The notes under the pieces are model-generated. The model had not been told where the DNA came from, made no database searches, and saw only the letters and a program-made list of their open reading frames with translations. DNA of 50,150 nt, taken from NCBI GenBank assembly GCA_963606965.1, contig CAVDAL010000108.1:1-50150 (forward strand), given 5' to 3'. Source of the DNA: Acutalibacteraceae bacterium. Lineage in GTDB: Bacteria > Actinomycetota > Coriobacteriia > Coriobacteriales > QAMH01. Positions 34,990 through 49,644 of the stretch are shown here, piece after piece. Both the position numbers and the translations under genes were made by a program. Every line of letters begins with the position of its first letter. Within the stretch, counting starts at the first letter, position 1.

Positions 34990-35385
34990 CTAAAGCGCAT
35001 CTGGATCTTGCGCGCGCAAGATGAAATGATATATCACTAAAACTATAGCTTGAACAATCAATGCAATAGCTGAAATAATAATTGTTTGCTCAATATATAA
35101 ATTATTCACTTCATAATAAATAATAGCTACGCATAAAATTATTCCAATAATTACAGAAGGAATAACCCAATTTTTCTTGCCATGTGGCGTTGTTGTGCAA
35201 GCATATCCTGCACATGCTGCAGCCAAGGCAAGCAAGCCAGCAAACCAAGCAGCAGTCACTGTTATGTCTCCTGTTGAAGTTGTTTGTTGAGCAAGAGACC
35301 TTGCACATGCTGCAACACCAATTGCAGCAACGATAACAGAAAGTATGCGAAGCAAAACTTGCTTAATTGTGATATGTTCTTCCAT
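34990..35385 (-). CDS. Hypothetical 4-TM membrane protein (last gene of the accessory operon)
   Basis: 131 aa with four hydrophobic segments and no motif I recognise. Lies 15 nt downstream of the CCG protein gene. Confidence 0.55.
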   Translation of the reverse strand: MEEHITIKQVLLRILSVIVAAIGVAACARSLAQQTTSTGDITVTAAWFAGLLALAAACAGYACTTTPHGKKNWVIPSVIIGIILCVAIIYYEVNNLYIEQTIIISAIALIVQAIVLVIYHFILRAQDPDAL

Positions 35386-35400
35386 AAAACCTACAACCTA

Positions 35401-36552
35401 CTATGAAAATACTTGTGCAAGCCAGCTGCCATATGGGCCAACCCACATTTCATTCAAACGCTTGAAATTTTCTTCCCAATCAAACTTGTTTGAAAAGATA
35501 AGTTCAAGATAGTTTTTATTATCAATACCAGCGCCTTTACCAGCACTTATCTGCTGGAAAGCAAATGTATATGTGCATGTTGGGCACATTGTTACAAGAG
35601 TGTCGCCCGGTACACATTGTGCAAAAATTTCTTCAACTTTTGCAGCTTGGCGCTCTGGCTTAAATGCACTCACAGCACCGCCTGCACCGCAACATCCACC
35701 ACAAATTTGCGGCGCATCTTGCGGCAAGCCCATTATATGCTTAATGCCATCAGATGCATTTGCACCATGGTCTTGACATGATACAAAAAAGCGAGGGCTT
35801 TTGACTTCTGCATTTTCACAATTAAAGCCGGCCTCTTCTAAGAAATTAGGTAACATGCAAGCCTGTGCACTGCATTCATATTTTTTAAGAGCTTTAACAA
35901 GAATGTTATAGCAGCCTGGGCAACAACATAAAACCTTTTTTGCACCACTTTGCTTAATTTCTGAAACAAAGCGTTCACACAAGGCATCTGCGCGATCAAT
36001 AAAACCAGCACTTTTCAAAGGTGAACCACAACAATAATCAACCAATGTTGTCTTGCCACCAAGCTCTTCAATCTTTGCAAAAATTTCACGCGTTAATTCA
36101 GGAGCATATGCTGCTAAAGAACACCCTGGGAAAAATGCTAATTCGCAGTCCCCGTCTTCATATTTATAAAGGTCTGTATATCCAATGCCATAAATAGCAC
36201 GATATGCTTTAAAGATATCCCATTCTTGGTCAACTTGAACACTAACCCAAGCAGCACGAGGAATAAAGCCAGCTTTTTGATAGTCTTGACGCCCTGCCAA
36301 CATCAGTGAAATAACATCAATATCTGAAGGGCATTCATTCACACAATAGCCACATAAAAAGCAGCTACGCAAAACCTGTGTCAAGTCTTGATTTTCTTCC
36401 TTGCTTCCCTGCGAAAAAGCATCATGCATCATTAACGCAAATTTGCCAAGGTCAGTATTTACTTCGCTTAAGTTTATGCAAGAATCTGTGCACTTTTCAC
36501 AATGAATACAAGCACTTGCAACATCGCTATATGTCTTTAATGTGTCAACCAT
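35401..36552 (-). CDS. HdrD/GlcF/GlpC-like iron-sulfur protein (2 ferredoxin-type Cys motifs + 2 CCG domains), copy B
   Basis: 383 aa. 'CIHCEKCTDSC' and 'CFLCGYCVNECP'. CCG signatures are 'FPGCSL...CCGSPL...CPGC' and 'SCQD...CCGAGG...CPTC'. Its start overlaps the upstream stop (TAATG). Confidence 0.8.
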   Translation of the reverse strand: MVDTLKTYSDVASACIHCEKCTDSCINLSEVNTDLGKFALMMHDAFSQGSKEENQDLTQVLRSCFLCGYCVNECPSDIDVISLMLAGRQDYQKAGFIPRAAWVSVQVDQEWDIFKAYRAIYGIGYTDLYKYEDGDCELAFFPGCSLAAYAPELTREIFAKIEELGGKTTLVDYCCGSPLKSAGFIDRADALCERFVSEIKQSGAKKVLCCCPGCYNILVKALKKYECSAQACMLPNFLEEAGFNCENAEVKSPRFFVSCQDHGANASDGIKHIMGLPQDAPQICGGCCGAGGAVSAFKPERQAAKVEEIFAQCVPGDTLVTMCPTCTYTFAFQQISAGKGAGIDNKNYLELIFSNKFDWEENFKRLNEMWVGPYGSWLAQVFS

Positions 36553-37778
36553 TACAACTCAATCTTCAAACCGTCATGCGCTAATATAACGCGACCTTCA
36601 TATTGTTTTATATGCTCTTCGATAATTTCAATAATATCTTCATCTTCATGGCAAATATGCGGAGCAAGATGTGTTAGCACGATCTTTCCAGCGCCTAAAT
36701 CCAAACCTTCTGCAATTGTTTGCTTCACACTATGATGCGTCCTATATGGCGTATCATTTTCCCAGAAAGTAGAGTCCAAAATCAAAGTATCAATACCGCG
36801 CAAAAGTTCATAAACTTCTGGCTTAAAGTCACCTGAATCTGGAGCATAAAAAGTGCGCTTGCCGCTTGGTGAAGTTATTAAATAACCAAAAGTCCCAGGG
36901 CAATGATTAAGCGGCAAAGCTTGAATTTTTAGCGAGTCAATTTCAATAGTTTCAAAGTCTTGCAAAATTTTTGTATCAAAACAATCACGCATATATTCAA
37001 ACTCTTTGAAAGTTTCATTAATTGCATATTCACTTGCATAAAAAGGTAAAGACGCGCCCATATATAAACGAACAAAATATTCAAGCTCACCAAAGCCACC
37101 AAGATGGTCAAAATGAGCATGAGTCAAAAAGACTTGGTCAAGTTCGCAAACATCTTCACGAATAAGTTGGTGACGAATATCCGGCGGCGTATCAATCAAG
37201 ATATTTTGATGACCACTAATTAAAGCTCCAGTGCAGCCACGCTTTAAAGTCGGGTCTTTTCTTGCTGCTTCACAAGCTTTGCAATGACAAAAGAATGCCG
37301 GAACACCACAGCCTGAAGATGTTCCAAGCAATGTAATTGCATGCTTTACCTGGGAAGACTTCATTGGTGCAGGGCCGCATGTTTGCCTATCTTGGCACAA
37401 GTCGCATTCATTGGATTGCTCATATGCAATTTCATCCCATGAACATTCCTCAAAGCCACATTTTTTATAAAAGCCTTTTGTTGGTCCTTCTGCCACTAAG
37501 AAAAGCTGTGGATAAATTTTTAAAGCATCCTTAACCAAAGCAATGCCAACGCCGCTGCCTCGCGCAACTTCAAAAACAGCAACAGGTCTGATATAAAATT
37601 TGCCATCGCTTAGCTGTTCGCAGCGACAAGCACCCAAGATTGTGTTATCAAGTTTTGCAGCAACGCGAATTCCATTCGGCTCTGCCACATCTCCAAAGCC
37701 TTCTGAATAAAAAAGAGAACGAATGATTTCCATGTCCTCTTCTTTTGCATCACGAATACGCCAAGCAGGACTTATCAT
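36552..37778 (-). CDS. GNAT N-acetyltransferase :: PhnP-like metallo-beta-lactamase-fold hydrolase fusion
   Basis: 408 aa from ATG 37778, which has the RBS GAGGAGGA and an ATGA overlap with the upstream stop. The ORF-track start 37805 is less likely. GNAT 'RPVAVFEVARGSGVGIALV'. MBL 'LLGTSSGCGVPAFFCHCKACEAA', 'LTHAHFDHLGG', 'LPLNHCPGTFGYLI', 'VLTHLAPH'. Confidence 0.75.
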   Translation of the reverse strand: MISPAWRIRDAKEEDMEIIRSLFYSEGFGDVAEPNGIRVAAKLDNTILGACRCEQLSDGKFYIRPVAVFEVARGSGVGIALVKDALKIYPQLFLVAEGPTKGFYKKCGFEECSWDEIAYEQSNECDLCQDRQTCGPAPMKSSQVKHAITLLGTSSGCGVPAFFCHCKACEAARKDPTLKRGCTGALISGHQNILIDTPPDIRHQLIREDVCELDQVFLTHAHFDHLGGFGELEYFVRLYMGASLPFYASEYAINETFKEFEYMRDCFDTKILQDFETIEIDSLKIQALPLNHCPGTFGYLITSPSGKRTFYAPDSGDFKPEVYELLRGIDTLILDSTFWENDTPYRTHHSVKQTIAEGLDLGAGKIVLTHLAPHICHEDEDIIEIIEEHIKQYEGRVILAHDGLKIEL

Positions 37779-38296
37779 TTGTCCTCCTCGAAGTGACCAA
37801 AGCACCCGCGCTGACTCATGATAAGAGTTTGCGTTGGAACAACTTTGCCTTCTTCTGTAATATCAGCGCATGTTTGAGCAATTTTTGTGCGCCCGATATA
37901 AAGCTCATGGTCGCCATAAATTTTATGTTCCATCAGTTCACATTCGACCCAAGACAAAGCTTCTTTAATTCGCGGTGCTTTTACAAATTGTGAACTTTGC
38001 GCTGTTAATCCAGCTTGTGCAAATCTATCTTCGACATGCTGGCCGCATATAATAGCAGCTTGCGCCTGTTGTGGACGCAGCATATTTATACAAAAACTTT
38101 CGCCTTCAATAATTGCTTTAGCAGTCTTGCCACCTGGGCGCAAAGCAATAGCAATGATTGATGGCTCATGTGAAAGCGGCATAGCCCAAGCAACGCTAGC
38201 GACACAAGGCTCACCATTGCAATCACTGGAAGTGACAAGTGTTACACTTGTTGGGACAAGCAAAGCAGCAATTTCTTTTCCTTCAACAGTATTCAT
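37775..38296 (-). CDS. Flavin reductase-like (FMN-binding split-barrel) domain protein
   Basis: 173 aa. 'VTLVTSSDCNGEPCVASVAWAMPLSHEPSIIAIAL', 'FCINML', and 'GDHELYIGR' match the Flavin_Reduct pattern. Confidence 0.8.
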   Translation of the reverse strand: MNTVEGKEIAALLVPTSVTLVTSSDCNGEPCVASVAWAMPLSHEPSIIAIALRPGGKTAKAIIEGESFCINMLRPQQAQAAIICGQHVEDRFAQAGLTAQSSQFVKAPRIKEALSWVECELMEHKIYGDHELYIGRTKIAQTCADITEEGKVVPTQTLIMSQRGCFGHFEEDK

Positions 38297-38302
38297 AATG
38301 CA

Positions 38303-39274
38303 TCACATAATTGGTGGTAGATAAATTTTGTCGCGTGACTGAGGAATGGCACGTTTGCGCAACTCAGTCAAGCCTTTGCAAATTGTTGGCATCATTTCTG
38401 TTGGAACACCCATAAACATCATGTCTTCACCAATGTCACTTGCAGCACGGCAACCATAGCAGCCAAAAGTAATATTTGGTTCATTATTTAAGAATGGATA
38501 TAAAACAGCTTCAACACACATTGAATTATATCCACTGGCGTGAAAGTCAAATCTGTGTCCTGTGTAATAGCTCATAGACATGCAAAGCCACATCATCTGT
38601 TCTGGAGTGCCAGTAAATACAACAACTTCAGGTTCACGCACAGTCTTTGAAAGTGGAGCAACATATGTTGCGCGACGTGACTTTTCTGGAAGAGTTGGAC
38701 GTTCTGCAACCATCTGAGCAGCAGCTTCTGCTGTTTCAAGCTTGTGAAATAAAACATAAATTTCACCTGTTGCAAGCTTTTTTGGAACATCTGTCATGCC
38801 AAAAATGCTTGTGCCATCAGGGCAAGAATGCTTATGAGGCGGCATCAAAATGCTTTGTCCGCGGCGTGCATTCATTAAAGCTTGGCAAAAACGCAAGTTT
38901 TCTGGTGGCATTGCAACATCTGGTAAAAGTTCATCTTTATCAATTAAACCAACAGCAACTGGACGCCAACGCAAGTCCAATTTTTCCATGCAAATCTTTT
39001 CCCATTCAGCATATTGTTTATGAAGCTCATTAGAAATTGGTTCTGCACGATCTTCATCTGCAAATGGGTCATAAACAGCACCGCCAATTGCTTCAACAGT
39101 TAAAGCACGCTTTTGGCATTGGCCCGAGCATGTATCGCAACCAACACATGCATCAATATCGACAACAACTGGTTTGCCATCTTTCATTTCAAAACAATAG
39201 CAAGGACAAAATGCCACGCACAAGCCACAACCAATGCACTTTGATGCATCATGAATGATTCTATAATCTGCCAT
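38303..39274 (-). CDS. 2x[4Fe-4S] ferredoxin domain fused to a DUF169 (COG2043) domain
   Basis: 323 aa. 'CIGCGLCVAFCP' and 'CVGCDTCSGQC' lie in the first 60 aa. The remainder ('WRPVAVGLI...LRFCQALMNARRGQSILM...HSCPDGTSIFGM') resembles DUF169 as I recall it. Confidence 0.65.
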   Translation of the reverse strand: MADYRIIHDASKCIGCGLCVAFCPCYCFEMKDGKPVVVDIDACVGCDTCSGQCQKRALTVEAIGGAVYDPFADEDRAEPISNELHKQYAEWEKICMEKLDLRWRPVAVGLIDKDELLPDVAMPPENLRFCQALMNARRGQSILMPPHKHSCPDGTSIFGMTDVPKKLATGEIYVLFHKLETAEAAAQMVAERPTLPEKSRRATYVAPLSKTVREPEVVVFTGTPEQMMWLCMSMSYYTGHRFDFHASGYNSMCVEAVLYPFLNNEPNITFGCYGCRAASDIGEDMMFMGVPTEMMPTICKGLTELRKRAIPQSRDKIYLPPIM

Positions 39275-40576
39275 CTATTCGCTTGCTCCTGTTCCCCACA
39301 TCTTATAAATTCTATTTCCGCAGCTATTCGTCATTTGATATGAACAAAATGGAATAACTCGCCCATCCTTCATCGCAACTGTCATTGAACATTCGCGCAT
39401 TCTCTCAACTGTAGTGCTCATTGCATCCATATAATTCATGATAATTACTGAAACTCCATGATCCCAATCTTTAACACCGCAATGAGCAAGCACATCTGTA
39501 AATGCTGAACCTTGCGGACTTGTTGGGTCAAAGTGTTCAATATATTGTTCACGCGTTAAGTCGCGTGTTGCACATTCCCAACCGCCTTCTGGTTTTGGAA
39601 CAAGAAATGTGCCAGTATCGCATAGCGGATGAGAACAGCCCAATGGCCAAATGTCAGAAGCTTTGATGAGCCCATCTGTTTGTTCTTCAAGAGAAAAGAT
39701 TGTATCTCCTGCTGTATATGGAGCAATTGCATCAGGTTCAAACCTGCCACTATTAAATGCTGGTTGCAAAGCAACGCCGCGAATTATGTCTGAATTATCT
39801 AGTGCAAACTGAATAACTTTGCCAACTTGATCATCATTTACACCGCTGACAATTGTCATGCAAATAACAACCTGAATGCCAACCTTGCGGCAATTTTCTA
39901 TCGCATTCAACTTTGCTTGAAACACTGCTTTGCTGCCACGGATAATGCTATATGGATTTTCATCCACGCCATCAAAAGCAATATATACGCCTGTAATTCC
40001 AGCATCTACAAGCTTTTGCAAATAATCAATATCTTTGCCAATTACAAGACCATTTGTATTTACTTCAATTCCAGTGAATCCATAGCGTCTAGCCATAGCA
40101 ACAATTTGAGGTAAGTCTTCACGCACCGTTGGCTCGCCGCCTGTAATTTGCAAGCCTGTTTCTGGTCCAACTTTTGTTGCAAGTGTTGAAATCAAGCCTT
40201 CAATTTCTTCAAAGCTAATTCCATCACTTGGAAAGTCAGCAGACATAAAACATACAGGGCATTTCATGTTGCAGCGGCGCGTCACTTCAATTTCGACAAG
40301 AGTACCGCGGCGTGTATGCCTTGAACAAAGTCCACAAGACTTGCAGCATGCGTCCGTGACTTGAGCATCTGCAACTTTTGGAGCAGTGCAGTCCATGTGC
40401 AAGCTGTTAAGCCACATATAATGGTCTGCATCTGGCCAAACATAGCTTGTGACTTCGCCATGTTCAGGACATGTGCGTTTCATCCAAACTTTATTATCAT
40501 CATCTGCATAAACTTCCGCATTTAAAGTTTTCAAGCAATGCGGGCATAAAGCATGTAACTTTTGGAGCGTCTTCAT
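39275..40576 (-). CDS. Radical SAM protein with N-terminal zinc-ribbon and extra Cys cluster (COG1964 / MJ0619-Tes-like architecture)
   Basis: 433 aa. 'CPHC...CPEHG' ribbon, 'CCKSCGLCSRH', the canonical 'RRCNMKCPVCF' CX3CX2C, 'ITGGEPT', and C-terminal 'IIMNYMDA...RECSMTVAMKDGRVIPFCSYQ'. Confidence 0.85.
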   Translation of the reverse strand: MKTLQKLHALCPHCLKTLNAEVYADDDNKVWMKRTCPEHGEVTSYVWPDADHYMWLNSLHMDCTAPKVADAQVTDACCKSCGLCSRHTRRGTLVEIEVTRRCNMKCPVCFMSADFPSDGISFEEIEGLISTLATKVGPETGLQITGGEPTVREDLPQIVAMARRYGFTGIEVNTNGLVIGKDIDYLQKLVDAGITGVYIAFDGVDENPYSIIRGSKAVFQAKLNAIENCRKVGIQVVICMTIVSGVNDDQVGKVIQFALDNSDIIRGVALQPAFNSGRFEPDAIAPYTAGDTIFSLEEQTDGLIKASDIWPLGCSHPLCDTGTFLVPKPEGGWECATRDLTREQYIEHFDPTSPQGSAFTDVLAHCGVKDWDHGVSVIIMNYMDAMSTTVERMRECSMTVAMKDGRVIPFCSYQMTNSCGNRIYKMWGTGASE

Positions 40577-41496
40577 CGAATGTGACCTTCTGTTTCTTCA
40601 GCTGCTAAGGCAGGTGCATCTGCCCCATCTTCACTTTCATCCAAATATTGACGAGGGTCATGATTTTCATTCGGCGGTGAAACAGGCCTAATGCCAAGAT
40701 AATCTGCCCATTCCAAAACACGCTTTGGAACATAAATACCTGTTTGGAATTCTGAAGCTGTGCGCAAAGCACGAGCGCAAGAAAGACAATGCGCAAGGTC
40801 ATCAATTTCATCAACATCTGCAACAGGTGGCAAATAAGCATTTGGAATATTTCCATCCTTTAGCTTTTGAACATAGCCATCGAGTGCGGGGCGCCCAGTC
40901 ATGTTGTAATAAATCTCTTGATGATTGATTGGCGTATCATAATTAAAGCCAACCAATGATGTGCCACATTCTTGGCATGGCGCCTGAACAAAGCCAGGTG
41001 TACCCAAAACTTCACTGAAGTAGTCGAGCCAACGGAATGCTTCTGAAACATGCCCGCGAGGAAGTGTTGGAATGTCAGCACCGATTGAAACTATAGCTTC
41101 ATATCCAAGATCAAAAATATATTTGAATGCATAATCAAAGTGGTCGTCAAAAGTCGCGCCTTTGTCTGTCATATAATTTATTTCACGCGGCCAACCAGGA
41201 ACTTCTGCGATAGTTTCTTTCATAAGTTCAATATTTTCTGCTGGCGTTGTTGAAATGAATAAATCATATGTACGTTCAGGAGCACCAGGATTATATTCAC
41301 GCTCCTGCTTATTGTATGCGTCCAAGTCATCCATGCACCACATTGCAAGCTCTGTTACATCCCACAAGCTGCGCTTAAAAAATTGTGCTGCCTGTTCCTG
41401 TGTAAACGGGCCGCCACGTTCCTTTGTAAGACGAGTTTTTACAAGGCCCGGAATTGGCGGCTTGCTAAAGATTAAAATTGCATATTTCTTCTGCAT
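40573..41496 (-). CDS. DUF2064 / TIGR04282-like GT-A-fold (nucleotidyl/glycosyl-transferase-like) protein with acidic C-terminal tail
   Basis: 307 aa. 'YAILIFSKPPIPGLVKTRL' N-terminus and 'VSIGADIPTLP' are the DUF2064 hallmarks as I recall them. Its stop overlaps the radical SAM start (ATGA). Confidence 0.7.
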   Translation of the reverse strand: MQKKYAILIFSKPPIPGLVKTRLTKERGGPFTQEQAAQFFKRSLWDVTELAMWCMDDLDAYNKQEREYNPGAPERTYDLFISTTPAENIELMKETIAEVPGWPREINYMTDKGATFDDHFDYAFKYIFDLGYEAIVSIGADIPTLPRGHVSEAFRWLDYFSEVLGTPGFVQAPCQECGTSLVGFNYDTPINHQEIYYNMTGRPALDGYVQKLKDGNIPNAYLPPVADVDEIDDLAHCLSCARALRTASEFQTGIYVPKRVLEWADYLGIRPVSPPNENHDPRQYLDESEDGADAPALAAEETEGHIR

Positions 41497-41500
41497 AACC

Positions 41501-43717
41501 TTACTCCTTCTTTCTTATTCGACATGGTATGCCGTTATAAATCCAAGTACCTATTAGCGGCTCAGGGTCTGTATCAACATATCCCCGAGTTAAATAATTA
41601 ATGTTTGACTTAAAGCACTCTTCAAAATCGTCTGAAGATTTGCATATTTCAGGGTACCACCAACCATATTCAGCAGAGGCAATATCATCAACGATATCCG
41701 CAATATGCACATATTGAAGCACTTCTATGGAAGGATCATCTATACGCGAAATTAAGCATTCGTCACCCTCTTCAAGACCAAGCCGTTTTGCTGTATTTTC
41801 AGACATATCAACAAGCGGTTTTGGATGTGCTTTTCTAAAACTTTCGACTTCAAAATAACAAGATGCCCAATATGGCTGCTTGCGAGCACCTGTTATCAAA
41901 GTCACATAGTTTGGATCATCTGGAATTTCACTATGGATCCCTGGAATTTCAAACCAATTTGCAACAATGCCAGCGCCCATTTCTTCAAACATTTCATTTG
42001 CAAGTTCAACCTTGCCAGAAGGTGTTGCAAAGCCTTGCGGCTGTCCAGTTTCAGGGTTGATTTCTGTATATTTATAATAACGAGTTGAAGAGCCAGCAAT
42101 TCCATATGCTTTAAAAGCTTCCCACGACATGCCCGTAGGCTCAATAACGCGCGTCAATTCTTCTGTTAAATTTTTAGCAGGCCAAGCATCTTCACCTTGA
42201 CCAAGAGCAAGTCCAAGTTCGCGGAAAATTTCATAATCTTCTTTGCGTTCATAAAGTGGCTCAACAGCGGCAGGACCGCCATAACAAAAGTCTGAAACTC
42301 CACCCATTGCTTGAAAAGCAGGACGTTCGATTGCGCTTGCTGCTGGCAAAATATAGTCCGCCATAATTCCACTTGGAGTGATTAAATAATCAAGAACAAC
42401 GATCAAGTCCATCGACATCATTGCTTTATAAACAAGGCGAGTATCTGCATATGTAAGCAGCGGATTTGCAGCATTTACAATCAAAGCACTGACCTTGTAA
42501 GGCTTGCCTGTAATTGCCGCATTCCAAACATGAAGAGGCAAAGGCGAAGTTAAATATCGCATTGGCAAAGTTTTGCCCTGCTTTTCCGTGCGTTCATTCG
42601 CGCGCCGCCAGCCCGCATAGCTTTGAAGTTTACTGCCTTCTTCATTCAAACCATGTTGACGTGAAATTTCTGGGAAATATTCACTCATTTCAAGATCATA
42701 TTCCGACATAAAAGACGGGGCCATATTTACTGAACAAGTTCCAGGCTTGTCAACTCCGCCAGTTATAGCTCTAAGGCCTGCCAAAACACGATGAAGAGGA
42801 GCAGTATTTGGGCCGATTTGATCAACACCTCTGCCAGAAAGCAAAGCGCCTGGACCAAAGTCACACCACATATGAGCAGCAGCTTTTATATCTTCTGCTG
42901 AAACTCCAGTGATTTCTTCATACTCTTCCATGCTGCGTTCAAAGGCTTTTTCTTTGAAGATATCAAAACCATGGCACCAATTATTTATAAAGTCCCAATC
43001 GCATAAATTATCTTCAATTATCACTCGCGCTAAAGCATATGCAAGCAAAGTGTCTGTCCCTGGGAATGGGTGCAGCCATAGTGTTGCTTTTGAAGCTGTT
43101 GTTGAACGGCGCGGGTCAATACAAATGAGTCTGCCGCCATTGCGAATATAATCATTTATTGTTGTCCAAAAAAGTGAATTATCAGATTGTGCAGGATTTG
43201 TCCCCCACAAAATTAAACAAGCAGTGACTGCAGGATTAAAATCAACTTCAATTGGGTAACCAAATGTCATTGCCTGCATCCAGACGCGCGGGTTCCAGCA
43301 AATTGGACCTATACCCATATTATTTGGACTTCCAAGCAAATTCATAAACCTATGCAATGGCCAAAAGACGGCATGTGGACCACCAATAGCGCTAGCTACT
43401 GTCCAAGGACCATGCTCCTCAACAAGAGCAGCCATTTTCTGGGAAATTTCTTTTATTGCTTCATCCCAGCTTATGCGTTCAAACTTGCCACTACCGCGCT
43501 TGCCGACCGCGCGCAGCGGATAATTCACTCTATCTTCACTATAAAGCTTGTCCAAATTCATGCGCCAACGCCTGCAGCGCTGAGCAACTCGCACATCATA
43601 TGGATAACGCGTCGGGTCTGGAGTTAGCTCGACAATTTTGTCACCATCCATATGGGCATCAAAAGCACACAAGTACCCACAGTAATGACAATTTGTCTTT
43701 CTAACTTCTTCAGACAT
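41501..43717 (-). CDS. Molybdopterin (Mo/W-bisPGD, DMSO-reductase superfamily) oxidoreductase, cytoplasmic (no Tat signal)
   Basis: 738 aa. N-terminal [4Fe-4S] motif 'CHYCGYLC...C48', 'ILWGTNP', 'LICIDPRRS', and a C-terminal Molydop-binding barrel. An in-frame TAA three codons upstream of the ATG precludes a signal peptide. Confidence 0.88.
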   Translation of the reverse strand: MSEEVRKTNCHYCGYLCAFDAHMDGDKIVELTPDPTRYPYDVRVAQRCRRWRMNLDKLYSEDRVNYPLRAVGKRGSGKFERISWDEAIKEISQKMAALVEEHGPWTVASAIGGPHAVFWPLHRFMNLLGSPNNMGIGPICWNPRVWMQAMTFGYPIEVDFNPAVTACLILWGTNPAQSDNSLFWTTINDYIRNGGRLICIDPRRSTTASKATLWLHPFPGTDTLLAYALARVIIEDNLCDWDFINNWCHGFDIFKEKAFERSMEEYEEITGVSAEDIKAAAHMWCDFGPGALLSGRGVDQIGPNTAPLHRVLAGLRAITGGVDKPGTCSVNMAPSFMSEYDLEMSEYFPEISRQHGLNEEGSKLQSYAGWRRANERTEKQGKTLPMRYLTSPLPLHVWNAAITGKPYKVSALIVNAANPLLTYADTRLVYKAMMSMDLIVVLDYLITPSGIMADYILPAASAIERPAFQAMGGVSDFCYGGPAAVEPLYERKEDYEIFRELGLALGQGEDAWPAKNLTEELTRVIEPTGMSWEAFKAYGIAGSSTRYYKYTEINPETGQPQGFATPSGKVELANEMFEEMGAGIVANWFEIPGIHSEIPDDPNYVTLITGARKQPYWASCYFEVESFRKAHPKPLVDMSENTAKRLGLEEGDECLISRIDDPSIEVLQYVHIADIVDDIASAEYGWWYPEICKSSDDFEECFKSNINYLTRGYVDTDPEPLIGTWIYNGIPCRIRKKE

Positions 43718-43729
43718 AAAAGTTTACCT

Positions 43730-44884
43730 TTAAGAAAACATCAAGTCGCTTTGTTCGCAAATCTGCTGATATTTTGGGTCTCCAAAATATTTGCCAACGC
43801 GTTCATAAGCTTTGTCCCAGTCGATTTCTTCATCAAATAAAAGTTCAAGATAGTGATAAACCTTTGTTTTATCTGCACTACGTTGCAAAGAATTCACGCA
43901 GCTAAAACAAGCACTAACAACATAATCAAGGTCTAATGCATCAAACTCTTGCAAGCGCAATAGTCTGCGATAATCGCACATGTCTGGAGCATAACCGCTA
44001 ACAAGGCCACCGCCGCCACAGCACAATGCATCCCTATATTCATGAGGAAGTTTTACAATTTCGCTATTAGCTAAAAGCTTGCGAACACTTTTGCCAATTT
44101 CTCCACTGAATCTGTCATAGCATGAATCGTGAATAGCAACTTTCTTGCCACCTTCAATAACCATTCCTTCTTTTAGCAAAACATCTGGCAACATAATTTT
44201 ATTAAATCCATGCCTTTGCAGCGGCTCTTCAAAATGTTCATTGCAATCTGGGCAAACCAAAATCAAAGAATCTATTCCTTGGTCTTTAAGCCAATTTAAC
44301 AAGCCGTCCATGTGCGCATTATATCTATCTGCAAAGCCTCCCAAATCTAGTGGAGCGCCACAGCAAACAGTCACAACATGAGAAGCATATCCCTTTTCGC
44401 GCAGCCAATTGAATGTTTTTTCAACAAGCCTTGGCGCATATGCAAATAAAGAGCATCCTGGGAAAAATGCAGTTCTATCAGCACTTGCATTGCCGGTTGG
44501 CTTGCTTACAATTTTTGTAACTTTGCTTTCATCGCCATCATACATAGACTTCATCATTGTGAAGAAATTAAATTCGTTTTCAACGCGGAATTTGTTGAAG
44601 TTGCCTTCTAGCGAAGGATATTTATCAAGAAGAATTGAGCGCGCAGGCTTCATTGCATCGCTTGCTCGCAAGTCAACAGGGCAATGCGCGATGCATCTGT
44701 TGCACAAAGCACAAGCAAATGGAAAACTATCATGCGTTGTATCGCCAGACAAAATTGCTTCACAAACATCCCCAAGAGTAGTTGTTCCATCTTGAAACAT
44801 TCCACAATTTGTTTGCGTGCACAAACCACAGCGGATACAAGAATCCGCAAAGGATTGCACGCTTTCATTAGCGTCACTCAACAT
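43730..44884 (-). CDS. HdrD/GlcF/GlpC-like iron-sulfur protein (2 ferredoxin-type Cys motifs + 2 CCG domains), copy A
   Basis: 384 aa. 'CIRCGLCTQTNC', 'CALCNRCIAHCP', 'FPGCSL...CCGAPL...CPDC', and 'HDSC...CCGGGG...CFSC'. RBS GAGGGTG. First gene after the terminator. Confidence 0.8.
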   Translation of the reverse strand: MLSDANESVQSFADSCIRCGLCTQTNCGMFQDGTTTLGDVCEAILSGDTTHDSFPFACALCNRCIAHCPVDLRASDAMKPARSILLDKYPSLEGNFNKFRVENEFNFFTMMKSMYDGDESKVTKIVSKPTGNASADRTAFFPGCSLFAYAPRLVEKTFNWLREKGYASHVVTVCCGAPLDLGGFADRYNAHMDGLLNWLKDQGIDSLILVCPDCNEHFEEPLQRHGFNKIMLPDVLLKEGMVIEGGKKVAIHDSCYDRFSGEIGKSVRKLLANSEIVKLPHEYRDALCCGGGGLVSGYAPDMCDYRRLLRLQEFDALDLDYVVSACFSCVNSLQRSADKTKVYHYLELLFDEEIDWDKAYERVGKYFGDPKYQQICEQSDLMFS

Positions 44885-44953: not shown

Positions 44954-44984
44954 TAAAAAAAGCCCCGCTCAAACGAGCGGGGCT
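44954..44984 (-). terminator. Rho-independent terminator of the DmsABC-like operon
   Basis: Perfect 10-bp GC-rich stem AGCCCCGCTC (44961-70) / GAGCGGGGCT (44975-84) with a 4-nt loop. On the minus strand a T7 run follows (A-run 44954-60 on the plus strand). It lies 32 nt after the stop of the NrfD-like gene. Confidence 0.8.
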
Positions 44985-45015
44985 TTGCTATAAATAAAGC
45001 GAGAAAGAAAAGTTC

Positions 45016-46227
45016 TTATGCTTCAGCAGGAGTTTGCTCTGCTGCGATTTCTGATGGCAAAACAATATTGCGTGGGAAAGCTGGATTTTCAACAGGACGT
45101 TCCCCTTTAACACTTTTTACACCAACAGCCATCTTGAATTTCTTGCCAGCACCTGTGAATTCAGGAGCAACACGAACCGGGATATCGTCAAAGTCGTCTG
45201 CATTAACAATTTCAAAATACTGACGGCCTGGCTCCCAGTAATCCATATAATCTTCGTGCTTTTGTGACAAGCGAGTATAGTAACGTTCTTCGCCTTCGTC
45301 TAAACGGCGGTCATATGTCCACAAGATCATAAAGCGGAGCAAGCAGCCAGCAAGCAATGCCATAACTGGTGAAACAACGTTACCCAAGACTCCACCTGCT
45401 AAGTTAAAGATTAGTGGAACAACAAGACCAAGTCCGAACATGAATACCCAGAACACAACAGCCATGTTGCCACGAACCCAGCGTTCTGCAGCGCGCTTTG
45501 CATATACATTTGATGCACAGAATTGCAACATAACAAAGAGCAAGATTGTCAAAATTTCAGCGCAAATCAAAATTGCATCAATAGTATGTGTAAGGTGCAA
45601 CAATTCTTCATGTGCAAGTCCCCATTCAGCTGAGCCAATCAAAGCTTGTGCTTCGCTATTCATCCAGCTTGTTGGGAATGGGAAATGACCCATGCACAAG
45701 CCGAGCAAGCAAGCACCAGTTGAAAGAGCAGAAACTGTAAAGAGAACTGGAAGAGCTGGTGTATTCCAGAAAGGCCTTGCCTTCAAAGAAGAAAGCAAAA
45801 CGCCTGTATAAATCATAACGCAAGCACCTGTAATGCCACTAATACCAAGGCAGAATTTGCCAAAACCATTAGATGGAATTACATGCTTAAGCAAAGGCCA
45901 GTTTTCAAACCAGCTGACCTGCCAAATCAAGAACAGAGCAGCAAAGATCATAGAAACTGACAATAAAACAGCACCCCATTTAATAACAGCAGTGCGTGTA
46001 ACGAATGCGCGCTCGAAAACAGGCCACTGACCAAGTTCAAAAACGAGCAAGCCAGTACCAACGAGCAAGCATAAAACAGCAACTAAAACGCCCCATGTAA
46101 GAAGAGCTGATGTCATAACACCTGGAGCAATAATGATTGAATAAATAGCAGCAAATGTAAGCATGCCGCCGCCAAGGCCGCCAAGGAACAAATATGTTGC
46201 AAGTTCCCATCCCCAAAACTTCTGCAT
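45016..46227 (-). CDS. NrfD/PsrC/DmsC-type polytopic membrane anchor subunit with ~100-aa hydrophilic C-terminal extension
   Basis: 403 aa. 'WGWELATYLFLGGLGGG' is an NrfD-family N-terminus. About 8 TM helices run to roughly aa 305, followed by a charged tail. Its start overlaps the stop of the Fe-S subunit gene (TAATG). Confidence 0.85.
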   Translation of the reverse strand: MQKFWGWELATYLFLGGLGGGMLTFAAIYSIIIAPGVMTSALLTWGVLVAVLCLLVGTGLLVFELGQWPVFERAFVTRTAVIKWGAVLLSVSMIFAALFLIWQVSWFENWPLLKHVIPSNGFGKFCLGISGITGACVMIYTGVLLSSLKARPFWNTPALPVLFTVSALSTGACLLGLCMGHFPFPTSWMNSEAQALIGSAEWGLAHEELLHLTHTIDAILICAEILTILLFVMLQFCASNVYAKRAAERWVRGNMAVVFWVFMFGLGLVVPLIFNLAGGVLGNVVSPVMALLAGCLLRFMILWTYDRRLDEGEERYYTRLSQKHEDYMDYWEPGRQYFEIVNADDFDDIPVRVAPEFTGAGKKFKMAVGVKSVKGERPVENPAFPRNIVLPSEIAAEQTPAEA

Positions 46228-46787
46228 TAGGATCGACCTCCTAAGTCTCGAATGTAATAGACCTGTGGTTCTGTACCTAAATCTTCGAAGATGCGGTCTG
46301 TACGATATTTGTTGACCAACTTAGAAACCTCTGAGTTTGGATCATCCAAGTCACCAAAAATACGAGCATTTTGGTGGCATGATTTAACACAATGTGGCTG
46401 TTCACCTTGACGTACTCTGTCTTTGCAGAATGTGCATTTGCGAATCCAGCCCTCTTTTTTATTGTAGTCACGAGCACCATATGGGCAAGCATTTGCACAA
46501 ACTTTGCAACCCATGCACTGTGTTGGTTCTACCCAAACAATGCCGTCGTCATCTTGACGAGAAGCACCTGTTGGGCAAGCAGGAACACAAGCTGGTTTTG
46601 CGCAGTGCATACAAAGCATTGGTGTAAAGTTCAAGTGAACATCTGGCCATTGCCCTTGAGCACCAGCAGAAACAACTGGATTATAAATAATATCTACGGG
46701 AAGGTCATTCCACGTACGACATGCGATTGTGCATGACTGACAGCCAACACAACGACGCGTGTCCATTACCATTGCATAACGTGTCAT
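46227..46787 (-). CDS. 4x[4Fe-4S] electron-transfer subunit (DmsB/PsrB/NrfC type)
   Basis: 186 aa. 'CVGCQSCTIAC', 'CMHCAKPACVPACP', 'CMGCKVCANACP', and 'CTFCKDRV...CVKSC'. Confidence 0.92.
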   Translation of the reverse strand: MTRYAMVMDTRRCVGCQSCTIACRTWNDLPVDIIYNPVVSAGAQGQWPDVHLNFTPMLCMHCAKPACVPACPTGASRQDDDGIVWVEPTQCMGCKVCANACPYGARDYNKKEGWIRKCTFCKDRVRQGEQPHCVKSCHQNARIFGDLDDPNSEVSKLVNKYRTDRIFEDLGTEPQVYYIRDLGGRS

Positions 46788-46803
46788 TTATCTCTCCCTC
46801 CCC

Positions 46804-49644
46804 TTAAACCGTAACTTCTTGATTTGGATCTTGCATGCTGTAATGCTTGCCTGTCTGCATATCCAACAAAGTATTTGTTGCTGGATCATATGCACGCAAT
46901 GTCACACGTTCATATAAAACATTTGTTGCAGGATCAACAAGCCAGCCTGTTTCAGCCTGATAATGGAATCCTGTACCAGGATGCTTTGTAACTTGTTCAA
47001 TTGGATCCCAAGTTAATCCCGGTGGTACTTGATAACCCGGTTGAGGACCACTTGAAGGCTGACCAGCAAAGTCATAGAATTGCTTATTGACTTCATCAAG
47101 TAAGAATTGTTCTTCGCCATATGGAACATATTTATAATCTGTGCCATATTGATGCAAAGCTTTTGTGACAGGGTCAACACACCAACCAGTAGCGCCATCA
47201 TAATAACGTGTGCGGTCTGCATTCCATGCTTTGCGAGTTTTGTAATCCCAAGTATAATCAGCTGGAACTTGGAAGTCTGGCTCAACAAAGATAGGTTCAT
47301 TGAATGGCAATGCACGCTGCTGTTCGCTTGGCATCTGATGAACGCCGCCACCAAGTGTTGCATAAGCAGAGCCAGGAATTGAGAATTCAGCATCATGTTC
47401 TGTATATTCGCAGTCTTCAGGAGTGCACTTATAAACTTTGCACAAAAGACCACGGTTTGCCCAACAACCTGTTAATGGGTCACAATGTTCGTCATCAACA
47501 GATGTCAAAACATTTGTATTTGATTCAAAGCAACCAAATGGCTGATAGCCTTCATGGCTGCGTTCTGGGAACCACCAACCACGCTGTGTATAAATAACAC
47601 GTGGATCCAAAGATGGCTCAACATTCGCACGTTGCTTAATACGGCCACGGCGAGTTTCAATCCAGCACCAGTCGCCTTCCTTAATCTTTAGCTTTTTAGC
47701 TGTATCAGGATGAATTGTGAAGAATGGATCTGGTTTGATATAACGAATAATTGGATTGTTGAAATGCTCTGAATGGTGGAATGGCATGAAGCCGCCGCCA
47801 GTAGTAAGAGCCAAAGGATATTCCTTTGCCAATTCTGGGTCATCTTGTTCGCTTTCTGGAGCGCAACCAAGATATGTTGGCAAGCCAGGAAGACCAAATT
47901 CTTCAAATACAGTAGATTTAAGTTCAACCTTGCCAGAAGCTGTGCAGAAGTAACCACGATTGATATGCTTTGAATAGTGCAATGGTGGATAATACATACG
48001 GAAGCGTTCAACAAAGTCATCATAACTTGTAATTGGCAAGTTAAGTGGTGAAAGAACATACATAAATACATCTTCGAGTTCTGGCCATGGCCAGTATCCT
48101 TCACCTTGACCGCAAGCAAGGCCAAGTTCACGCCAGATGTTGTAATCTGTTTTGCGTTCATACATTGGCTGAATTGCACGCTGGTTGCCTGTAATTGAAT
48201 CTGTTACACCATAGTTTGTATGAACAATTGGACGTTCCATAGCGCCAGCAACAGGCAAAACAAAGTCTGCTTGCAAAGCTGTTGGTGTGATGTAATAATC
48301 CAAAACAACCAAGAATTCTACTTTTCTTGTTGCTTCATAAACCATCTTTGAGTCACCATAAGAACTCAATGGGTTAGTGCCAGAAACAAGCAATGCACGA
48401 ACAGGATATGGATCGCCTGTAATGATTGCTTTGAAAACAGAAGGACCATGAGCTTCACAGAACCATTCACCCGTGAATGCCTTGCCCCACTTTTCTTTAG
48501 AAATATCTGCAAGTCGCTGATAACCAGGCCAAGTTGTCATTGGATACTTGTCTGCACCAATTTGCTTTGCCTTAGCTTCTTCAGGCAAAAATTCATTGCC
48601 TTCAAGTTCTTCATCAGTGATATATGCAGCAGGGCCTGGCATACCGTCGCCACCTGGGCAGTCGAGGTTGCCAGTAATAGAACGCAAAATTTGACGAGCA
48701 TGCATACCGCAACCAGCAGTTTTGCCAAGCTGGTCAGCAGTGCAACCCCACTGGATGTTACCAGGAGTGTTGCGAGCATACATACGAGCAGCTTCACGAA
48801 TTAATTCAGCATCGAGCCATGTTTCTTCAGCTGCCCACTCTGGAGTGTATTGCTGAATGTGTGCTTTGAGTTCTTCAAAACCATAGCACCATTGCTGAAC
48901 AAAAGCTGCATTATATAAGCCTTCATTGATGATGACATTGATCATAGCTAATGCCAAAGCTGAGTCTGAACCTGGACGCAATGGCAGCCATAAATCTGCA
49001 TGTGCTGCTGTCTCTGAATAACGAGGATCAACAACAATGAGCTTCATGCCTGTCTGCTGTTGCAGATCAAAATAGCCATGAGCACCTGGCATTGAAGATG
49101 CGCCTGGGTTAAAGCCCCAAAGAATAACGCATTTTGAACTGCCAAGGTCTGTTTCAAATGGTGACCAACCGCTTGTTGCAGTTTCGATCATGAATGTTGG
49201 AATCCAACAAAGCAAAGCATTATGGAATCCGTTTGGTGTACCAAATGCATTCAAGAAACGGCGACGAGCCCAGTCGTCAGTACGAAGCGTACCTGCAGCA
49301 GCTGCAACAGCCTCTGCACCACTTTCTTGTCTGATTTGCATTAACTTGTTAGCGATTTCGCTAATTGCCTGTTCCCAAGAAACACGCTCCCATTTATTTT
49401 CGCCCTTTTCACCAGCACGCTTTAATGGATAATTAACGCGCGAAGGATCATCGACAAAGTTGAGAGCTTGGTTGCCGCGGCAGCACAAGCCGCCAGCATT
49501 TGTTGGGTGGTTAGGATCGCCTTCAGCATAGATGAGCTTGCCGTCTTTTACATAAGCAAGAACACCACAGTTCTGATGGCAGAAGTAACAGGCGGATTTT
49601 TTAACTTCCACGCCCTCAGCATGGATATCTGCCTCGATTGTCAC
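46804..49644 (-). CDS. Mo/W-bisPGD oxidoreductase catalytic subunit (DmsA/PsrA-like), Tat-less, with ~200-aa repeat-containing C-terminal extension
   Basis: 946 aa. GTG start 6 nt after GAGGAGGAGG, with an in-frame TAG two codons upstream. [4Fe-4S] motif 'CYFCHQNC...GGLCCRG', 'ILWGFNP', and 'LIVVDPRYS'. The Molydop-binding barrel ends near aa 740 ('LLCKVYKC'). Confidence 0.9.
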   Translation of the reverse strand: MTIEADIHAEGVEVKKSACYFCHQNCGVLAYVKDGKLIYAEGDPNHPTNAGGLCCRGNQALNFVDDPSRVNYPLKRAGEKGENKWERVSWEQAISEIANKLMQIRQESGAEAVAAAAGTLRTDDWARRRFLNAFGTPNGFHNALLCWIPTFMIETATSGWSPFETDLGSSKCVILWGFNPGASSMPGAHGYFDLQQQTGMKLIVVDPRYSETAAHADLWLPLRPGSDSALALAMINVIINEGLYNAAFVQQWCYGFEELKAHIQQYTPEWAAEETWLDAELIREAARMYARNTPGNIQWGCTADQLGKTAGCGMHARQILRSITGNLDCPGGDGMPGPAAYITDEELEGNEFLPEEAKAKQIGADKYPMTTWPGYQRLADISKEKWGKAFTGEWFCEAHGPSVFKAIITGDPYPVRALLVSGTNPLSSYGDSKMVYEATRKVEFLVVLDYYITPTALQADFVLPVAGAMERPIVHTNYGVTDSITGNQRAIQPMYERKTDYNIWRELGLACGQGEGYWPWPELEDVFMYVLSPLNLPITSYDDFVERFRMYYPPLHYSKHINRGYFCTASGKVELKSTVFEEFGLPGLPTYLGCAPESEQDDPELAKEYPLALTTGGGFMPFHHSEHFNNPIIRYIKPDPFFTIHPDTAKKLKIKEGDWCWIETRRGRIKQRANVEPSLDPRVIYTQRGWWFPERSHEGYQPFGCFESNTNVLTSVDDEHCDPLTGCWANRGLLCKVYKCTPEDCEYTEHDAEFSIPGSAYATLGGGVHQMPSEQQRALPFNEPIFVEPDFQVPADYTWDYKTRKAWNADRTRYYDGATGWCVDPVTKALHQYGTDYKYVPYGEEQFLLDEVNKQFYDFAGQPSSGPQPGYQVPPGLTWDPIEQVTKHPGTGFHYQAETGWLVDPATNVLYERVTLRAYDPATNTLLDMQTGKHYSMQDPNQEVTV

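Follow-up and report, generated by a model that had tools for sequence, protein, structure and literature searches.

A conserved gene cluster joining Tat-less molybdenum/tungsten enzymes, a Tes-like radical SAM protein, and a ferredoxin::DUF169 protein in Coriobacteriia and other phyla

Nine closely spaced genes in a coriobacterial genome raise the question of whether they form a single system and, if so, what that system might do. The genes lie in a 50,150-nt stretch of DNA (GTDB lineage Actinomycetota; Coriobacteriia; Coriobacteriales; QAMH01), the whole of which is called the window here and whose positions serve as coordinates throughout. The block at 34990–44884 comprises nine open reading frames (ORFs), all on the minus strand, among them genes for a molybdenum- or tungsten-dependent (Mo/W) enzyme and a radical S-adenosylmethionine (SAM) enzyme. 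An initial annotation had presented the block as same-strand ORFs with short or overlapping junctions, and the coordinates and all eight spacings (+12, +4, −4, 0, +6, −4, −1, and +15 nt, in order) were reproduced. When the ATG at 37778, which follows GGAGGA, was taken as the start of gene 7 in place of the longest-ORF GTG at 37805, the ATGA (−4) overlap with gene 6 was also reproduced. All of the domain calls made for the block were confirmed by Pfam and NCBIfam, and the suggestion that the combination maps to no characterized pathway stood up to searches of Pfam, NCBIfam, the PDB, and the searchable literature, in which none was found.

An alignment of the radical SAM protein was used to scan one genome per GTDB species, which yielded 80 loci, and their neighborhoods were read by tblastn with the window proteins, ORF tables, and Pfam annotation. 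The loci span at least six phyla, the majority being Coriobacteriia. The carriers in this class include Gordonibacter, Adlercreutzia, Raoultibacter, Ellagibacter, Parvibacter, and Denitrobacterium; the other carriers are Chloroflexia, Acidobacteriota, Syntrophobacteraceae, Geobacter/Desulfuromonadales, Desulfitobacterium, Desulfosporosinus, and further Firmicutes. The tblastn data revealed a recurrent order, MoA – FeS – NrfD – CCG – Mo2 – DUF2064 – radical SAM – ferredoxin::DUF169 – GNAT, the first three genes of which correspond to 45016–49644 in the window, upstream of a terminator and outside the nine-gene block. The boundaries 34990–44884 drawn in the initial annotation are thus too narrow, and the conserved set extends upstream to MoA, the iron-sulfur (FeS) subunit, and NrfD. 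Conserved co-localization across genomes had been named as a point to check, and the same genes were found in the same order in dozens of genomes from several phyla. Gene order is kept across phyla at 25–80% protein identity, with wholly different flanking genes, and the co-localization is far beyond chance. The comparison showed the nine-gene block to make up the downstream two-thirds of a larger cluster, which is inherited vertically and has 11 recurrent components. Presence was counted only in loci with enough flank (33 in Coriobacteriia and 10 in other phyla, 43 in total); the components are listed below in order, with these counts.

49645–50020, no strand assigned: AT-rich intergenic region upstream of MoA, read from the sequence
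46804–49644, minus strand: MoA, Mo/W-bis(pyranopterin guanosine dinucleotide) (bisPGD) catalytic subunit without a twin-arginine translocation (Tat) motif, 946 aa (Pfam Molybdop_Fe4S4, Molybdopterin, Molydop_binding); 31/33 Coriobacteriia, 10/10 other phyla
46227–46787, minus strand: four-cluster [4Fe-4S] (FeS) subunit, PsrB/ArrB/NrfC-like, 186 aa (Pfam Fer4_11); 27/33 and 9/10
45016–46227, minus strand: NrfD-type membrane anchor, 403 aa (Pfam NrfD, 88 bits; about 8 transmembrane (TM) helices and a 98-aa hydrophilic tail by hydropathy); 26/33 and 5/10
44959–44986, minus strand: terminator-like hairpin between the NrfD gene and gene 1 (12-bp stem, 8 G-C pairs, T-run)
43730–44884, minus strand: gene 1, HdrD/TfrB-like Fe-S protein, 384 aa (Pfam CCG twice and Fer4; two complete CCG motifs); 29/33 and 4/10
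41501–43717, minus strand: gene 2 (Mo2), soluble Tat-less Mo/W-bisPGD enzyme, 738 aa (Pfam Molybdop_Fe4S4, Molybdopterin, Molydop_binding); 31/33 and 10/10
40573–41496, minus strand: gene 3, DUF2064 protein with GT-A fold (nucleotidyl-/glycosyl-transferase-like), 307 aa (Pfam DUF2064); 33/33 and 3/10
39275–40576, minus strand: gene 4, Tes/TrsS-family radical SAM enzyme, 433 aa (Pfam Radical_SAM, 89 bits; Zn_ribbon_HMPTM, 56 bits)
38303–39274, minus strand: gene 5, 2x[4Fe-4S] ferredoxin::DUF169 (PF02596), 323 aa (Pfam DUF169); 32/33 and 4/10
37775–38296, minus strand: gene 6, Flavin_Reduct protein (flavoredoxin/HpaC fold), 173 aa (Pfam, 98 bits), found also in Chloroflexia and Acidobacteriota versions; 13/33 and 4/10 (17/43)
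36552–37778, minus strand: gene 7, GNAT::metallo-beta-lactamase (MBL), PhnP/PqqB-like, 408 aa (Pfam Acetyltransf_1/7 and Lactamase_B_2); GNAT and/or MBL 31/33 and 7/10
35401–36552, minus strand: gene 8, second HdrD-like CCG Fe-S protein, 383 aa (Pfam CCG twice and Fer4_17); 11/33 and 2/10 (13/43)
34990–35385, minus strand: gene 9, small membrane protein, 131 aa (four TM segments by hydropathy)

MoA and Mo2 are paralogues whose tblastn matches cross over, and their presence rows alone do not prove two genes per locus; the ORF tables showed that both are carried by most loci. The proposal that the nine genes form one set held for the core and not for the rest: neither the flavin reductase nor the second CCG protein is an obligatory component, and gene 9, a twelfth gene, is confined to the window's own clade. 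Gene 9 had no family match in Pfam or NCBIfam, and a 31–44% identical ORF occupies the same position in the seven nearest-relative loci. No separate copy of gene 8 was found in the nearest-relative loci.

The most complete loci illustrate the unit. Pfam annotation of locus L083 gave the order MBL – MoA – FeS – NrfD – CCG – Mo2 – DUF2064 – radical SAM – ferredoxin::DUF169 – GNAT – CCG, the last gene being the gene 8 counterpart located after the GNAT gene, and Chloroflexi-like L084 carries the full set, including the flavin reductase, in a single unbroken gene string. L086 and L138 have most of the set, with the MoA–FeS–NrfD triad of L086 lying about 8 kb off on the opposite strand. In the other phyla, the Mo2 gene overlaps or abuts the radical SAM gene, and a CCG gene lies directly upstream of the radical SAM gene in Chloroflexia, Acidobacteriota, and Syntrophobacteraceae loci. 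The cluster was near-universal among the sampled Eggerthellaceae loci. No account of it was found in the searchable literature, most subscription papers being outside reach. Comparative genomics, together with the lack of a literature description, supports the view that this is an undescribed conserved system. Classed conservatively, all of its parts come from known protein families, and it is the set of partners of this iron-sulfur molybdoenzyme cluster that appears unprecedented.

In the window, the genes fall into two modules. Module 1 (45016–49644), made up of MoA, the four-cluster ferredoxin, and the NrfD anchor, would form a membrane-bound complex. Module 2 (34990–44884) encodes a second, soluble Mo/W enzyme, the radical SAM enzyme, candidate electron carriers (two CCG proteins, the ferredoxin::DUF169 protein, and the flavin-reductase-fold protein), and presumed small-molecule enzymes (the DUF2064 protein with its GT-A fold, GNAT, and a PhnP-type MBL phosphodiesterase). 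In the other phyla, the two modules are contiguous in one gene string, and in most relatives the NrfD and CCG genes lie on the same strand, spaced −16 to ~400 nt apart. The terminator reported ahead of gene 1 was recovered as the 12-bp stem at 44959–44986, and, as had also been reported for the region before dnaE, no terminator-like site was found in the gap from gene 9 to dnaE. MoA starts with GTG, preceded by a strong ribosome-binding site, GAGGAGGAGG, and the AT-rich region at 49645–50020 is likely the promoter region of the upstream module. The G+C content of the window is ~41%.

We then considered what the two Mo/W enzymes are. The nearest solved structure to MoA is acetylene hydratase (2e7z, E=1e-120, full-length alignment), which scored 407 bits against 240 bits for PsrA. 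Acetylene hydratase was likewise the nearest solved structure to Mo2 (E=6.6e-81), PsrA being next and far behind; of the two proteins, MoA resembles acetylene hydratase the more. In MoA, the FS0 cysteines C19/C22/C26/C54 and the ligand C146 are invariant among 32 orthologues; in Mo2, C10/C13/C17/C48 and the ligand C140 are kept in 56–57 of 57. This retention of the FS0 cysteines and the Cys ligand indicates that both are probably real cofactor-bearing enzymes. The first FS0 cysteine stands at residue 19 in MoA and residue 10 in Mo2, with no Tat leader in either. An RR/Tat motif was found in 0/32 MoA orthologues; RR occurred in 4/57 called Mo2 ORFs, which we put down to over-extended start calls.

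In acetylene hydratase, Asp13, which adjoins the second FS0 cysteine, is catalytic and Ile142, Trp179, Trp293, Trp472, and Phe611 form a hydrophobic ring. MoA and Mo2 share with this enzyme (2E7Z) the FS0 cluster and the Cys metal ligand. However, where acetylene hydratase has Asp13, all 32 MoA orthologues have His and 56 of the 57 Mo2 orthologues have Gly, and the ring is mostly replaced in both proteins. Acetylene hydratase function was ruled out for MoA and Mo2, as neither the catalytic Asp nor the hydrophobic ring is conserved. The acetylene hydratase clade also holds the gut catechol dehydroxylases Dadh, Hcdh, Cadh, and Dodh (PMC7028382), and we would place MoA and Mo2 in this acetylene-hydratase/catechol-dehydroxylase clade, their kinship with the dehydroxylases being judged through shared proximity to acetylene hydratase. 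The Eggerthella lenta dehydroxylases have the same catalytic/4Fe-4S/membrane-anchor triad as the MoA module but carry Tat signals, which MoA and Mo2 do not, whereas the Gordonibacter-type dehydroxylase is soluble and Tat-less, like Mo2 (PMC7028382). The characterized dehydroxylase clusters in that study list no radical SAM, DUF169, or DUF2064 partner (PMC7028382). Several of the loci examined here hold three or four Mo-bisPGD genes.

At its C-terminus, MoA is extended by residues ~746–946 (46804–47409), with aromatic-rich W-x-VDP-x-T repeats and faint Pfam OCRE matches. The extension is limited to Coriobacteriia, where the protein is 860–1198 aa long, or 1351 aa in L088 (1–3838), versus 746–774 aa in other phyla.

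The partners of MoA point to the membrane. The FeS subunit matched ArrB, NrfC, DsrO, and TtrB in NCBIfam, each below the cut-off, and its identity is 57–80% in most of the loci with upstream flank and 34–35% for the Syntrophobacteraceae-type homologue. The A (bisPGD), B (four-cluster), C (NrfD) architecture is common to the MoA module and Psr/Phs-type enzymes, with the order conserved; MoA differs in lacking a Tat motif and in its PhsA score of 328 bits against a cut-off of 694. The same architecture is found in the sulfite dehydrogenase SoeABC, whose A subunit is without a Tat signal and whose catalytic dimer should face the cytoplasm. The analysis showed MoA, FeS, and NrfD to be, as predicted from their sequences, a PsrABC-like membrane complex with a cytoplasm-facing catalytic dimer that would exchange electrons with menaquinone. 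This cytoplasm-facing bisPGD/FeS/NrfD layout is unusual for the enzyme class. In Syntrophobacteraceae (L077 6462–7253; also L078 and L080), a NarI/DsrM-like membrane subunit stands in place of NrfD, beside a CCG protein, which lends independent support to quinone coupling from the cytoplasmic side. The idea of a self-contained cytoplasmic redox and radical SAM module therefore holds as far as a conserved module is concerned, and the purely soluble character it implied does not, given the NrfD anchor and the quinone link.

Two further lineage-specific variants were observed around this module. In the same Syntrophobacteraceae loci (L077, L078, and L080), the genes after the cluster encode an FmdE-like zinc-finger protein and MoaA, and an extra BioB-like radical SAM gene (344 aa) lies between NrfD and CCG in the Chloroflexi-type loci L055 (7793–8827) and L084 (3399–4433).

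For the radical SAM enzyme, gene 4, the nearest solved structure is the tetraether synthase GDGT-MAS/Tes (MJ0619; 7TOL, E=1.7e-79). In NCBIfam it scored 344 against TrsS (NF045646, cut-off 490) and 328 against Tes (NF045702, cut-off 450). TrsS was also the top family for all ten orthologues tested from several phyla, which scored 336–392 bits for TrsS and 285–331 bits for Tes, all below the cut-offs. Membership of Tes or TrsS was rejected at the equivalog level for the window protein and the ten orthologues, and the scores indicate that gene 4 represents a distinct, unnamed sister clade, the third of the Tes/TrsS family. Its metal sites are fully retained: the rubredoxin-like site C11/C14/C36/H39, the N-terminal auxiliary cluster site C77/C81/C84/H87, the CX3CX2C radical SAM motif C102/C106/C109, and the C-terminal cysteines C314, C319, C396, and C411 are invariant across 12 orthologues. 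The first two match the GDGT-MAS motifs C9X2C12X20C33X2H36 and C73/C77/C80 plus His (PMC9433317). The C-terminal segment aligns, residues 373–415 corresponding to GDGT-MAS 452–494, but the region between it and the core is 54 residues long, versus 114 in GDGT-MAS. Gene 4 nevertheless differs from Tes/GDGT-MAS in context, its neighbors being molybdoenzymes and not lipid genes, and its host bacterium is not known for tetraethers. The TrsS relative is a selenoprotein; gene 4 has no selenocysteine and is set apart by its NCBIfam score, but a CCG-type partner is a point in common, 'diclust_near_Sec' being the best match of gene 1.

The initial annotation had related this radical SAM protein to a pterin methylase. 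However, Lloyd et al. did not reproduce the pterin activity of MJ0619 and found a long hydrophobic tunnel with bound lipids, and the protein has been reassigned as the tetraether synthase GDGT-MAS/Tes (PMC9433317). With the founding annotation superseded, pterin-methylase ancestry of gene 4 was dropped. Two hypotheses had been offered for the block, (a) electron shuttling between the CCG proteins or flavin reductase and the Mo/W enzyme and (b) tailoring of the Mo/W cofactor; the reassignment removes most of the basis for (b), and (a) is favored. Zeng et al. listed 456 bacterial Tes homologues of unknown function, using an E value below 1e-50 and identity above 20%, and proposed a role for them in the synthesis of brGDGTs (branched glycerol dialkyl glycerol tetraethers) (PMC8941075). 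These criteria would probably include the gene 4 clade.

The candidate electron carriers of module 2 comprise genes 1, 5, 6, and 8. Genes 1 and 8 resemble HdrD, DsrK, and TfrB in having two ferredoxin-type clusters and two complete CCG motifs, and the NarI-type partner of HdrDE and DsrMK recurs beside the Syntrophobacteraceae FeS and CCG proteins. They differ in that their equivalog scores fall far below the cut-offs and no thiol/disulfide substrate is evident. For gene 1, NCBIfam ranked 'diclust_near_Sec' first (133 bits) and TfrB next. Gene 5, the ferredoxin::DUF169 protein, matched DUF169 with 191 bits over 208/209 model positions (gathering score 27 bits) and is the most conserved protein of the set, with up to 82% identity between genera. 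Its residues H149, C130, C151, C253, C272, and C275 are invariant across phyla. A first AlphaFold2 model from a shallow alignment was discarded (predicted local distance difference test, pLDDT, 55). The model from a 51-sequence alignment reached a pLDDT of 87, and a Foldseek search against the PDB matched the ferredoxin part only. On this model, DUF169 is an uncharacterized fold that probably binds metal.

The window copy of gene 5 (38303–39274) was compared with those of L003–L007, L066, and L046/L028. It is 80–82% identical to Eggerthellaceae proteins and only 67–70% identical to those of the otherwise nearest genomes, for which the radical SAM identity is 71–73%. Across loci, DUF169 identities are bimodal, ~72–82% or ~48–58%, which suggests gene replacement or two subtypes. 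DUF169 genes elsewhere adjoin a TauE/SafE permease gene (D. alaskensis), and STRING ties one to YedE (Slackia).

Among the presumed small-molecule enzymes, gene 3 has TIGR04282, an arsenosugar biosynthesis glycosyltransferase family, as its best NCBIfam match at 58.8 bits, and its L086 orthologue reaches 88.5 bits, both below the cut-off of 134; its sole PDB match is 3cgx, a putative nucleotide-diphospho-sugar transferase. Gene 7 matched GPMC-MBL (120 bits) and PhnP (106 bits, cut-off 272), both below cut-off. The fusion of GNAT to MBL is peculiar to the window's clade; in other genomes they are mostly separate genes, with GNAT after DUF169 and MBL upstream of MoA. In the phn operon, phnO and phnP are adjacent, an arrangement that the fusion mirrors; however, unlike the arsenosugar and C-P lyase systems, the window has no ArsM, ArsS, or PhnGHIJ, no phnGHIJ-type genes having been identified among its annotated ORFs.

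The surroundings of the cluster were compared across genomes. In the window, it is set among housekeeping genes (dnaE, fakA, recG, rsmD, coaD, dxs, recN, and glyA), with no transporter or regulator beside it. A same-strand run at 12546–34890 holds glyA, recN, dxs, biotin carboxylase, a carboxyltransferase/biotin-carrier gene (PYC_OADA/HMGL-like), a GH25 lysozyme-like gene, coaD, rsmD, recG, fakA, and dnaE, and the dnaE adjacency is common to the window and its two nearest relatives, L005 and L007. The homologues of the window's cluster proteins in the genome collection come from uncultured gut and rumen Coriobacteriia, at identities of 73% or less. Elsewhere, genes for aromatic-acid/H+ symporter-type major facilitator superfamily (MFS) proteins of the PcaK/MhpT type were found in the non-Coriobacteriia loci L086, L067, L062, and L076. 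Regulators were also seen: outside Coriobacteriia, some loci have sigma-54/PAS activators and an IclR gene, and 17 loci from Eggerthellaceae have a PadR gene. MoaA, MogA-like, and FmdE-like genes lie near the cluster in several non-Coriobacteriia loci.

Arsenic-type genes were found at two loci. In Acidobacteriota-like L086 (11564–16190), DUF2064 is followed by a bona fide ArsS (426 bits against a cut-off of 300) together with an ArsM-like methyltransferase, a MIP channel, and an ArsC-like gene. In Geobacter L074 (9164–14128), a 1033-aa radical SAM::ArsM-like::MbdU-like (DUF5714) fusion lies between DUF2064 and the flavin reductase. As a general trait, ArsS/ArsM adjacency was rejected: it is real, yet confined to these two of ~90 loci. 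Adjacency to a UbiA prenyltransferase gene was also set aside as a single occurrence (L019).

Upstream of MoA, a ParA/Mrp/CbiA-type ATPase gene (possibly for an Fe-S carrier) lies directly on the same strand in the close relatives L081 and L082 (1–336). Its place in the window is taken by the 376-nt AT-rich gap, followed by a divergent ORF (50021–50150, plus strand) that runs off the window end and reads MCFRPPTVEMDD..GAPGAPG. This ORF resembles a family of small proteins, here called MCFRP, whose members begin with an invariant MCFRP, continue into a CPxC...CPxC zinc ribbon, and end in a low-complexity tail of Ala, Pro, and Glu. The window copy shows the N-terminus and an AP-rich tail, with no zinc ribbon within the window. 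The family had no significant Pfam or NCBIfam match, only sub-threshold generic zinc-ribbon ones. MCFRP genes lie near the cluster in 13 loci and the window, 14 cases versus ~0.24 expected by chance; the MCFRP loci are L012, L055, L061, L067, L068, L070–L072, L075, L077, L078, L080, L086, and L089–L158. In an unbiased metagenome scan that returned ~50 members, 28/70 loci had some Mo-bisPGD gene and 2/70 had the cluster. A role as radical SAM precursor peptide or specific partner was rejected, as the protein accompanies many kinds of Mo-bisPGD loci, and the family looks like a general companion of molybdoenzyme loci.

What, then, might the cluster do? The reading that we favor, tentatively and without holding it to be probable, is an anaerobic pathway in the cytoplasm, linked to menaquinone, in which Tes-like radical hydrogen abstraction on a hydrophobic or aromatic substrate is combined with (de)hydroxylation by the Mo/W enzymes. 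Like Tes, the radical SAM enzyme would act at an unactivated carbon, removing a hydrogen atom from a substrate that is hydrophobic (alkyl, alkyl-aromatic, or lipid-like). On this substrate, or on the product formed from it, MoA and Mo2 would carry out oxygen-atom chemistry, namely reductive dehydroxylation after the pattern of their catechol-dehydroxylase relatives, or water addition, and not acetylene hydration, and electrons would pass between cytoplasmic Fe-S proteins and the quinone pool via FeS/NrfD (a NarI-like subunit in some lineages) and the CCG proteins. In DUF2064, GNAT, and MBL, the pathway would have enzymes for activating or trimming a polar group on the substrate. Several lines of evidence support this reading: the NrfD or NarI-like anchor argues for quinone coupling from the cytoplasmic side; gene 4 keeps the metal motifs of GDGT-MAS, an enzyme with a hydrophobic tunnel; gene order is conserved across phyla, with the two modules contiguous in other phyla, Mo2 and radical SAM genes that overlap or abut, and a CCG gene directly ahead of the latter; both Mo enzymes have no Tat motif and keep the FS0 and Cys ligands, and their nearest solved structure is acetylene hydratase, of the clade that holds the gut catechol dehydroxylases; and some relatives carry genes for aromatic-acid symporters and sigma-54/PAS, IclR, and PadR regulators.

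Other observations weigh against it. The absence of an adjacent transporter or regulator and the housekeeping setting in the window sit more easily with a constitutive or biosynthetic role than with inducible catabolism. In this genome a strong terminator separates the two modules, and L086 and L074 tie the DUF2064 part to arsenic-type genes. Gene 4 has only half the length (54 versus 114 residues) of the insert from which GDGT-MAS builds its second lipid pocket, and Tes-like substrate binding is therefore not assured. Reduced versions also exist: termite-gut Coriobacteriales have DUF2064–radical SAM–DUF169–GNAT only, with no Mo enzyme within ~9 kb, and the Firmicutes/Desulfuromonadales versions lack DUF2064, DUF169, and CCG and retain MoA – FeS – NrfD – radical SAM, plus Mo2 in most, which suggests that parts can work in different combinations.

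Three other readings are live rivals, each held to be less likely. Organo-metalloid or chalcogen chemistry would have As, Se, Te, Sb, or S species reduced by the Mo/W and CCG proteins, a carbon–metalloid bond made or cleaved by the radical SAM enzyme, and a ribosyl or adenosyl group processed by DUF2064, GNAT, and MBL, as in arsenosugar synthesis or by PhnO/PhnP. It accommodates the TIGR04282 match of DUF2064, the ArsS/ArsM-like/MIP/ArsC-like set directly after DUF2064 in L086, the ArsM-like fusion in L074, the nearest named relatives of genes 4 (selenoprotein TrsS) and 1 ('diclust_near_Sec'), PhnP among the best matches of the gene 7 MBL half, and the TauE/SafE and YedE associations of DUF169. 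We nonetheless consider it unlikely, for arsenic genes adjoin in just 2 of ~90 loci, the supporting family matches all lie below curated cut-offs, both Mo enzymes are far nearer to acetylene hydratase than to ArrA or PsrA, and the window contains no ArsR, ArsM, ArsS, or metalloid transporter. Dedicated maturation, hypothesis (b), with the radical SAM protein, DUF2064 (MobA/CofC-like nucleotidyl-transferase fold), MBL, GNAT, and DUF169 building or modifying a special pyranopterin cofactor or a residue of Mo2, seems improbable. Eggerthellaceae and Desulfitobacterium are rich in Mo-bisPGD paralogues, and many carriers belong to such lineages, several loci having three or four of these genes; the radical SAM gene is tightly adjacent to Mo2 in all phyla, DUF2064 matches CofC weakly, and MoaA, MogA-like, or FmdE-like genes occur in several non-Coriobacteriia loci. 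Yet the pterin-methylase assignment of the founding family member was not reproduced, and the active site of that protein is a hydrophobic tunnel (PMC9433317). Moreover, the Firmicutes/Desulfuromonadales versions keep the Mo enzymes and radical SAM protein without DUF2064, DUF169, GNAT, or MBL, and the termite-gut lineages keep accessory genes without an adjacent Mo enzyme.

The last rival is membrane-lipid remodeling. Lipid tails would be joined or altered by the Tes homologue to give membrane-spanning or ether lipids, the quinone-linked Mo enzymes and CCG proteins would supply or remove reducing equivalents, and the GT-A, GNAT, and MBL proteins would act on head groups. We know of no report of membrane-spanning lipids in Eggerthellaceae, and this reading, too, strikes us as rather implausible: gene 4 scores below the Tes equivalog cut-off, its second-lipid-pocket region is shortened, and no lipid-synthesis genes are conserved nearby, UbiA adjoining once only; the sigma-54/PAS regulators and MFS transporters of other phyla fit an inducible pathway better. 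In its favor are GDGT-MAS as the closest solved structure with all metal motifs retained, Acidobacteriota, Chloroflexia, and Syntrophobacteraceae among the carriers, the one adjacent UbiA gene, a core-genome position in the window that fits a housekeeping role, and the proposal that bacterial Tes homologues are brGDGT synthases (PMC8941075). That no single system exists, the genes being a fortuitous run of unrelated small operons in a compact genome, is highly improbable. The strong terminator does split the region and genes 6, 8, and 9 are variably present, but this reading is already contradicted by the comparative data, the order being conserved across phyla at 25–80% identity with differing flanks and overlapping start and stop codons. 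Returning to the pathway that we favor, a broader formulation is possible, if somewhat doubtful: an unrecognized, widespread anaerobic system made up of a new Tes-like clade, paired cytoplasm-facing Mo/W enzymes wired to quinone, and a new Cys-rich metalloprotein fold in DUF169, with undescribed chemistry such as O2-independent C–H functionalization followed by Mo-dependent (de)hydroxylation, or carbon–metalloid bond formation or cleavage.

There is a substantial chance that the cluster hides new chemistry. Eggerthellaceae play a major part in transforming drugs, catecholamines, and dietary polyphenols. Those of their Mo-dependent dehydroxylases that are characterized have been described as dedicated and substrate-specific (PMC7028382), and a relative of those enzymes, the cluster described here, is near-universal among the loci sampled from this family. 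It gives two long-standing domains of unknown function, DUF169 and DUF2064, a defined genomic context. In addition, the presence of a Mo-enzyme-linked Tes-like clade in Acidobacteriota, Chloroflexia, and Desulfobacterota calls into question the proposal that bacterial Tes homologues are candidate brGDGT synthases (PMC8941075). If the cluster does carry out undescribed chemistry, many of the bacterial Tes homologues now taken for brGDGT markers would be something other than lipid synthases.

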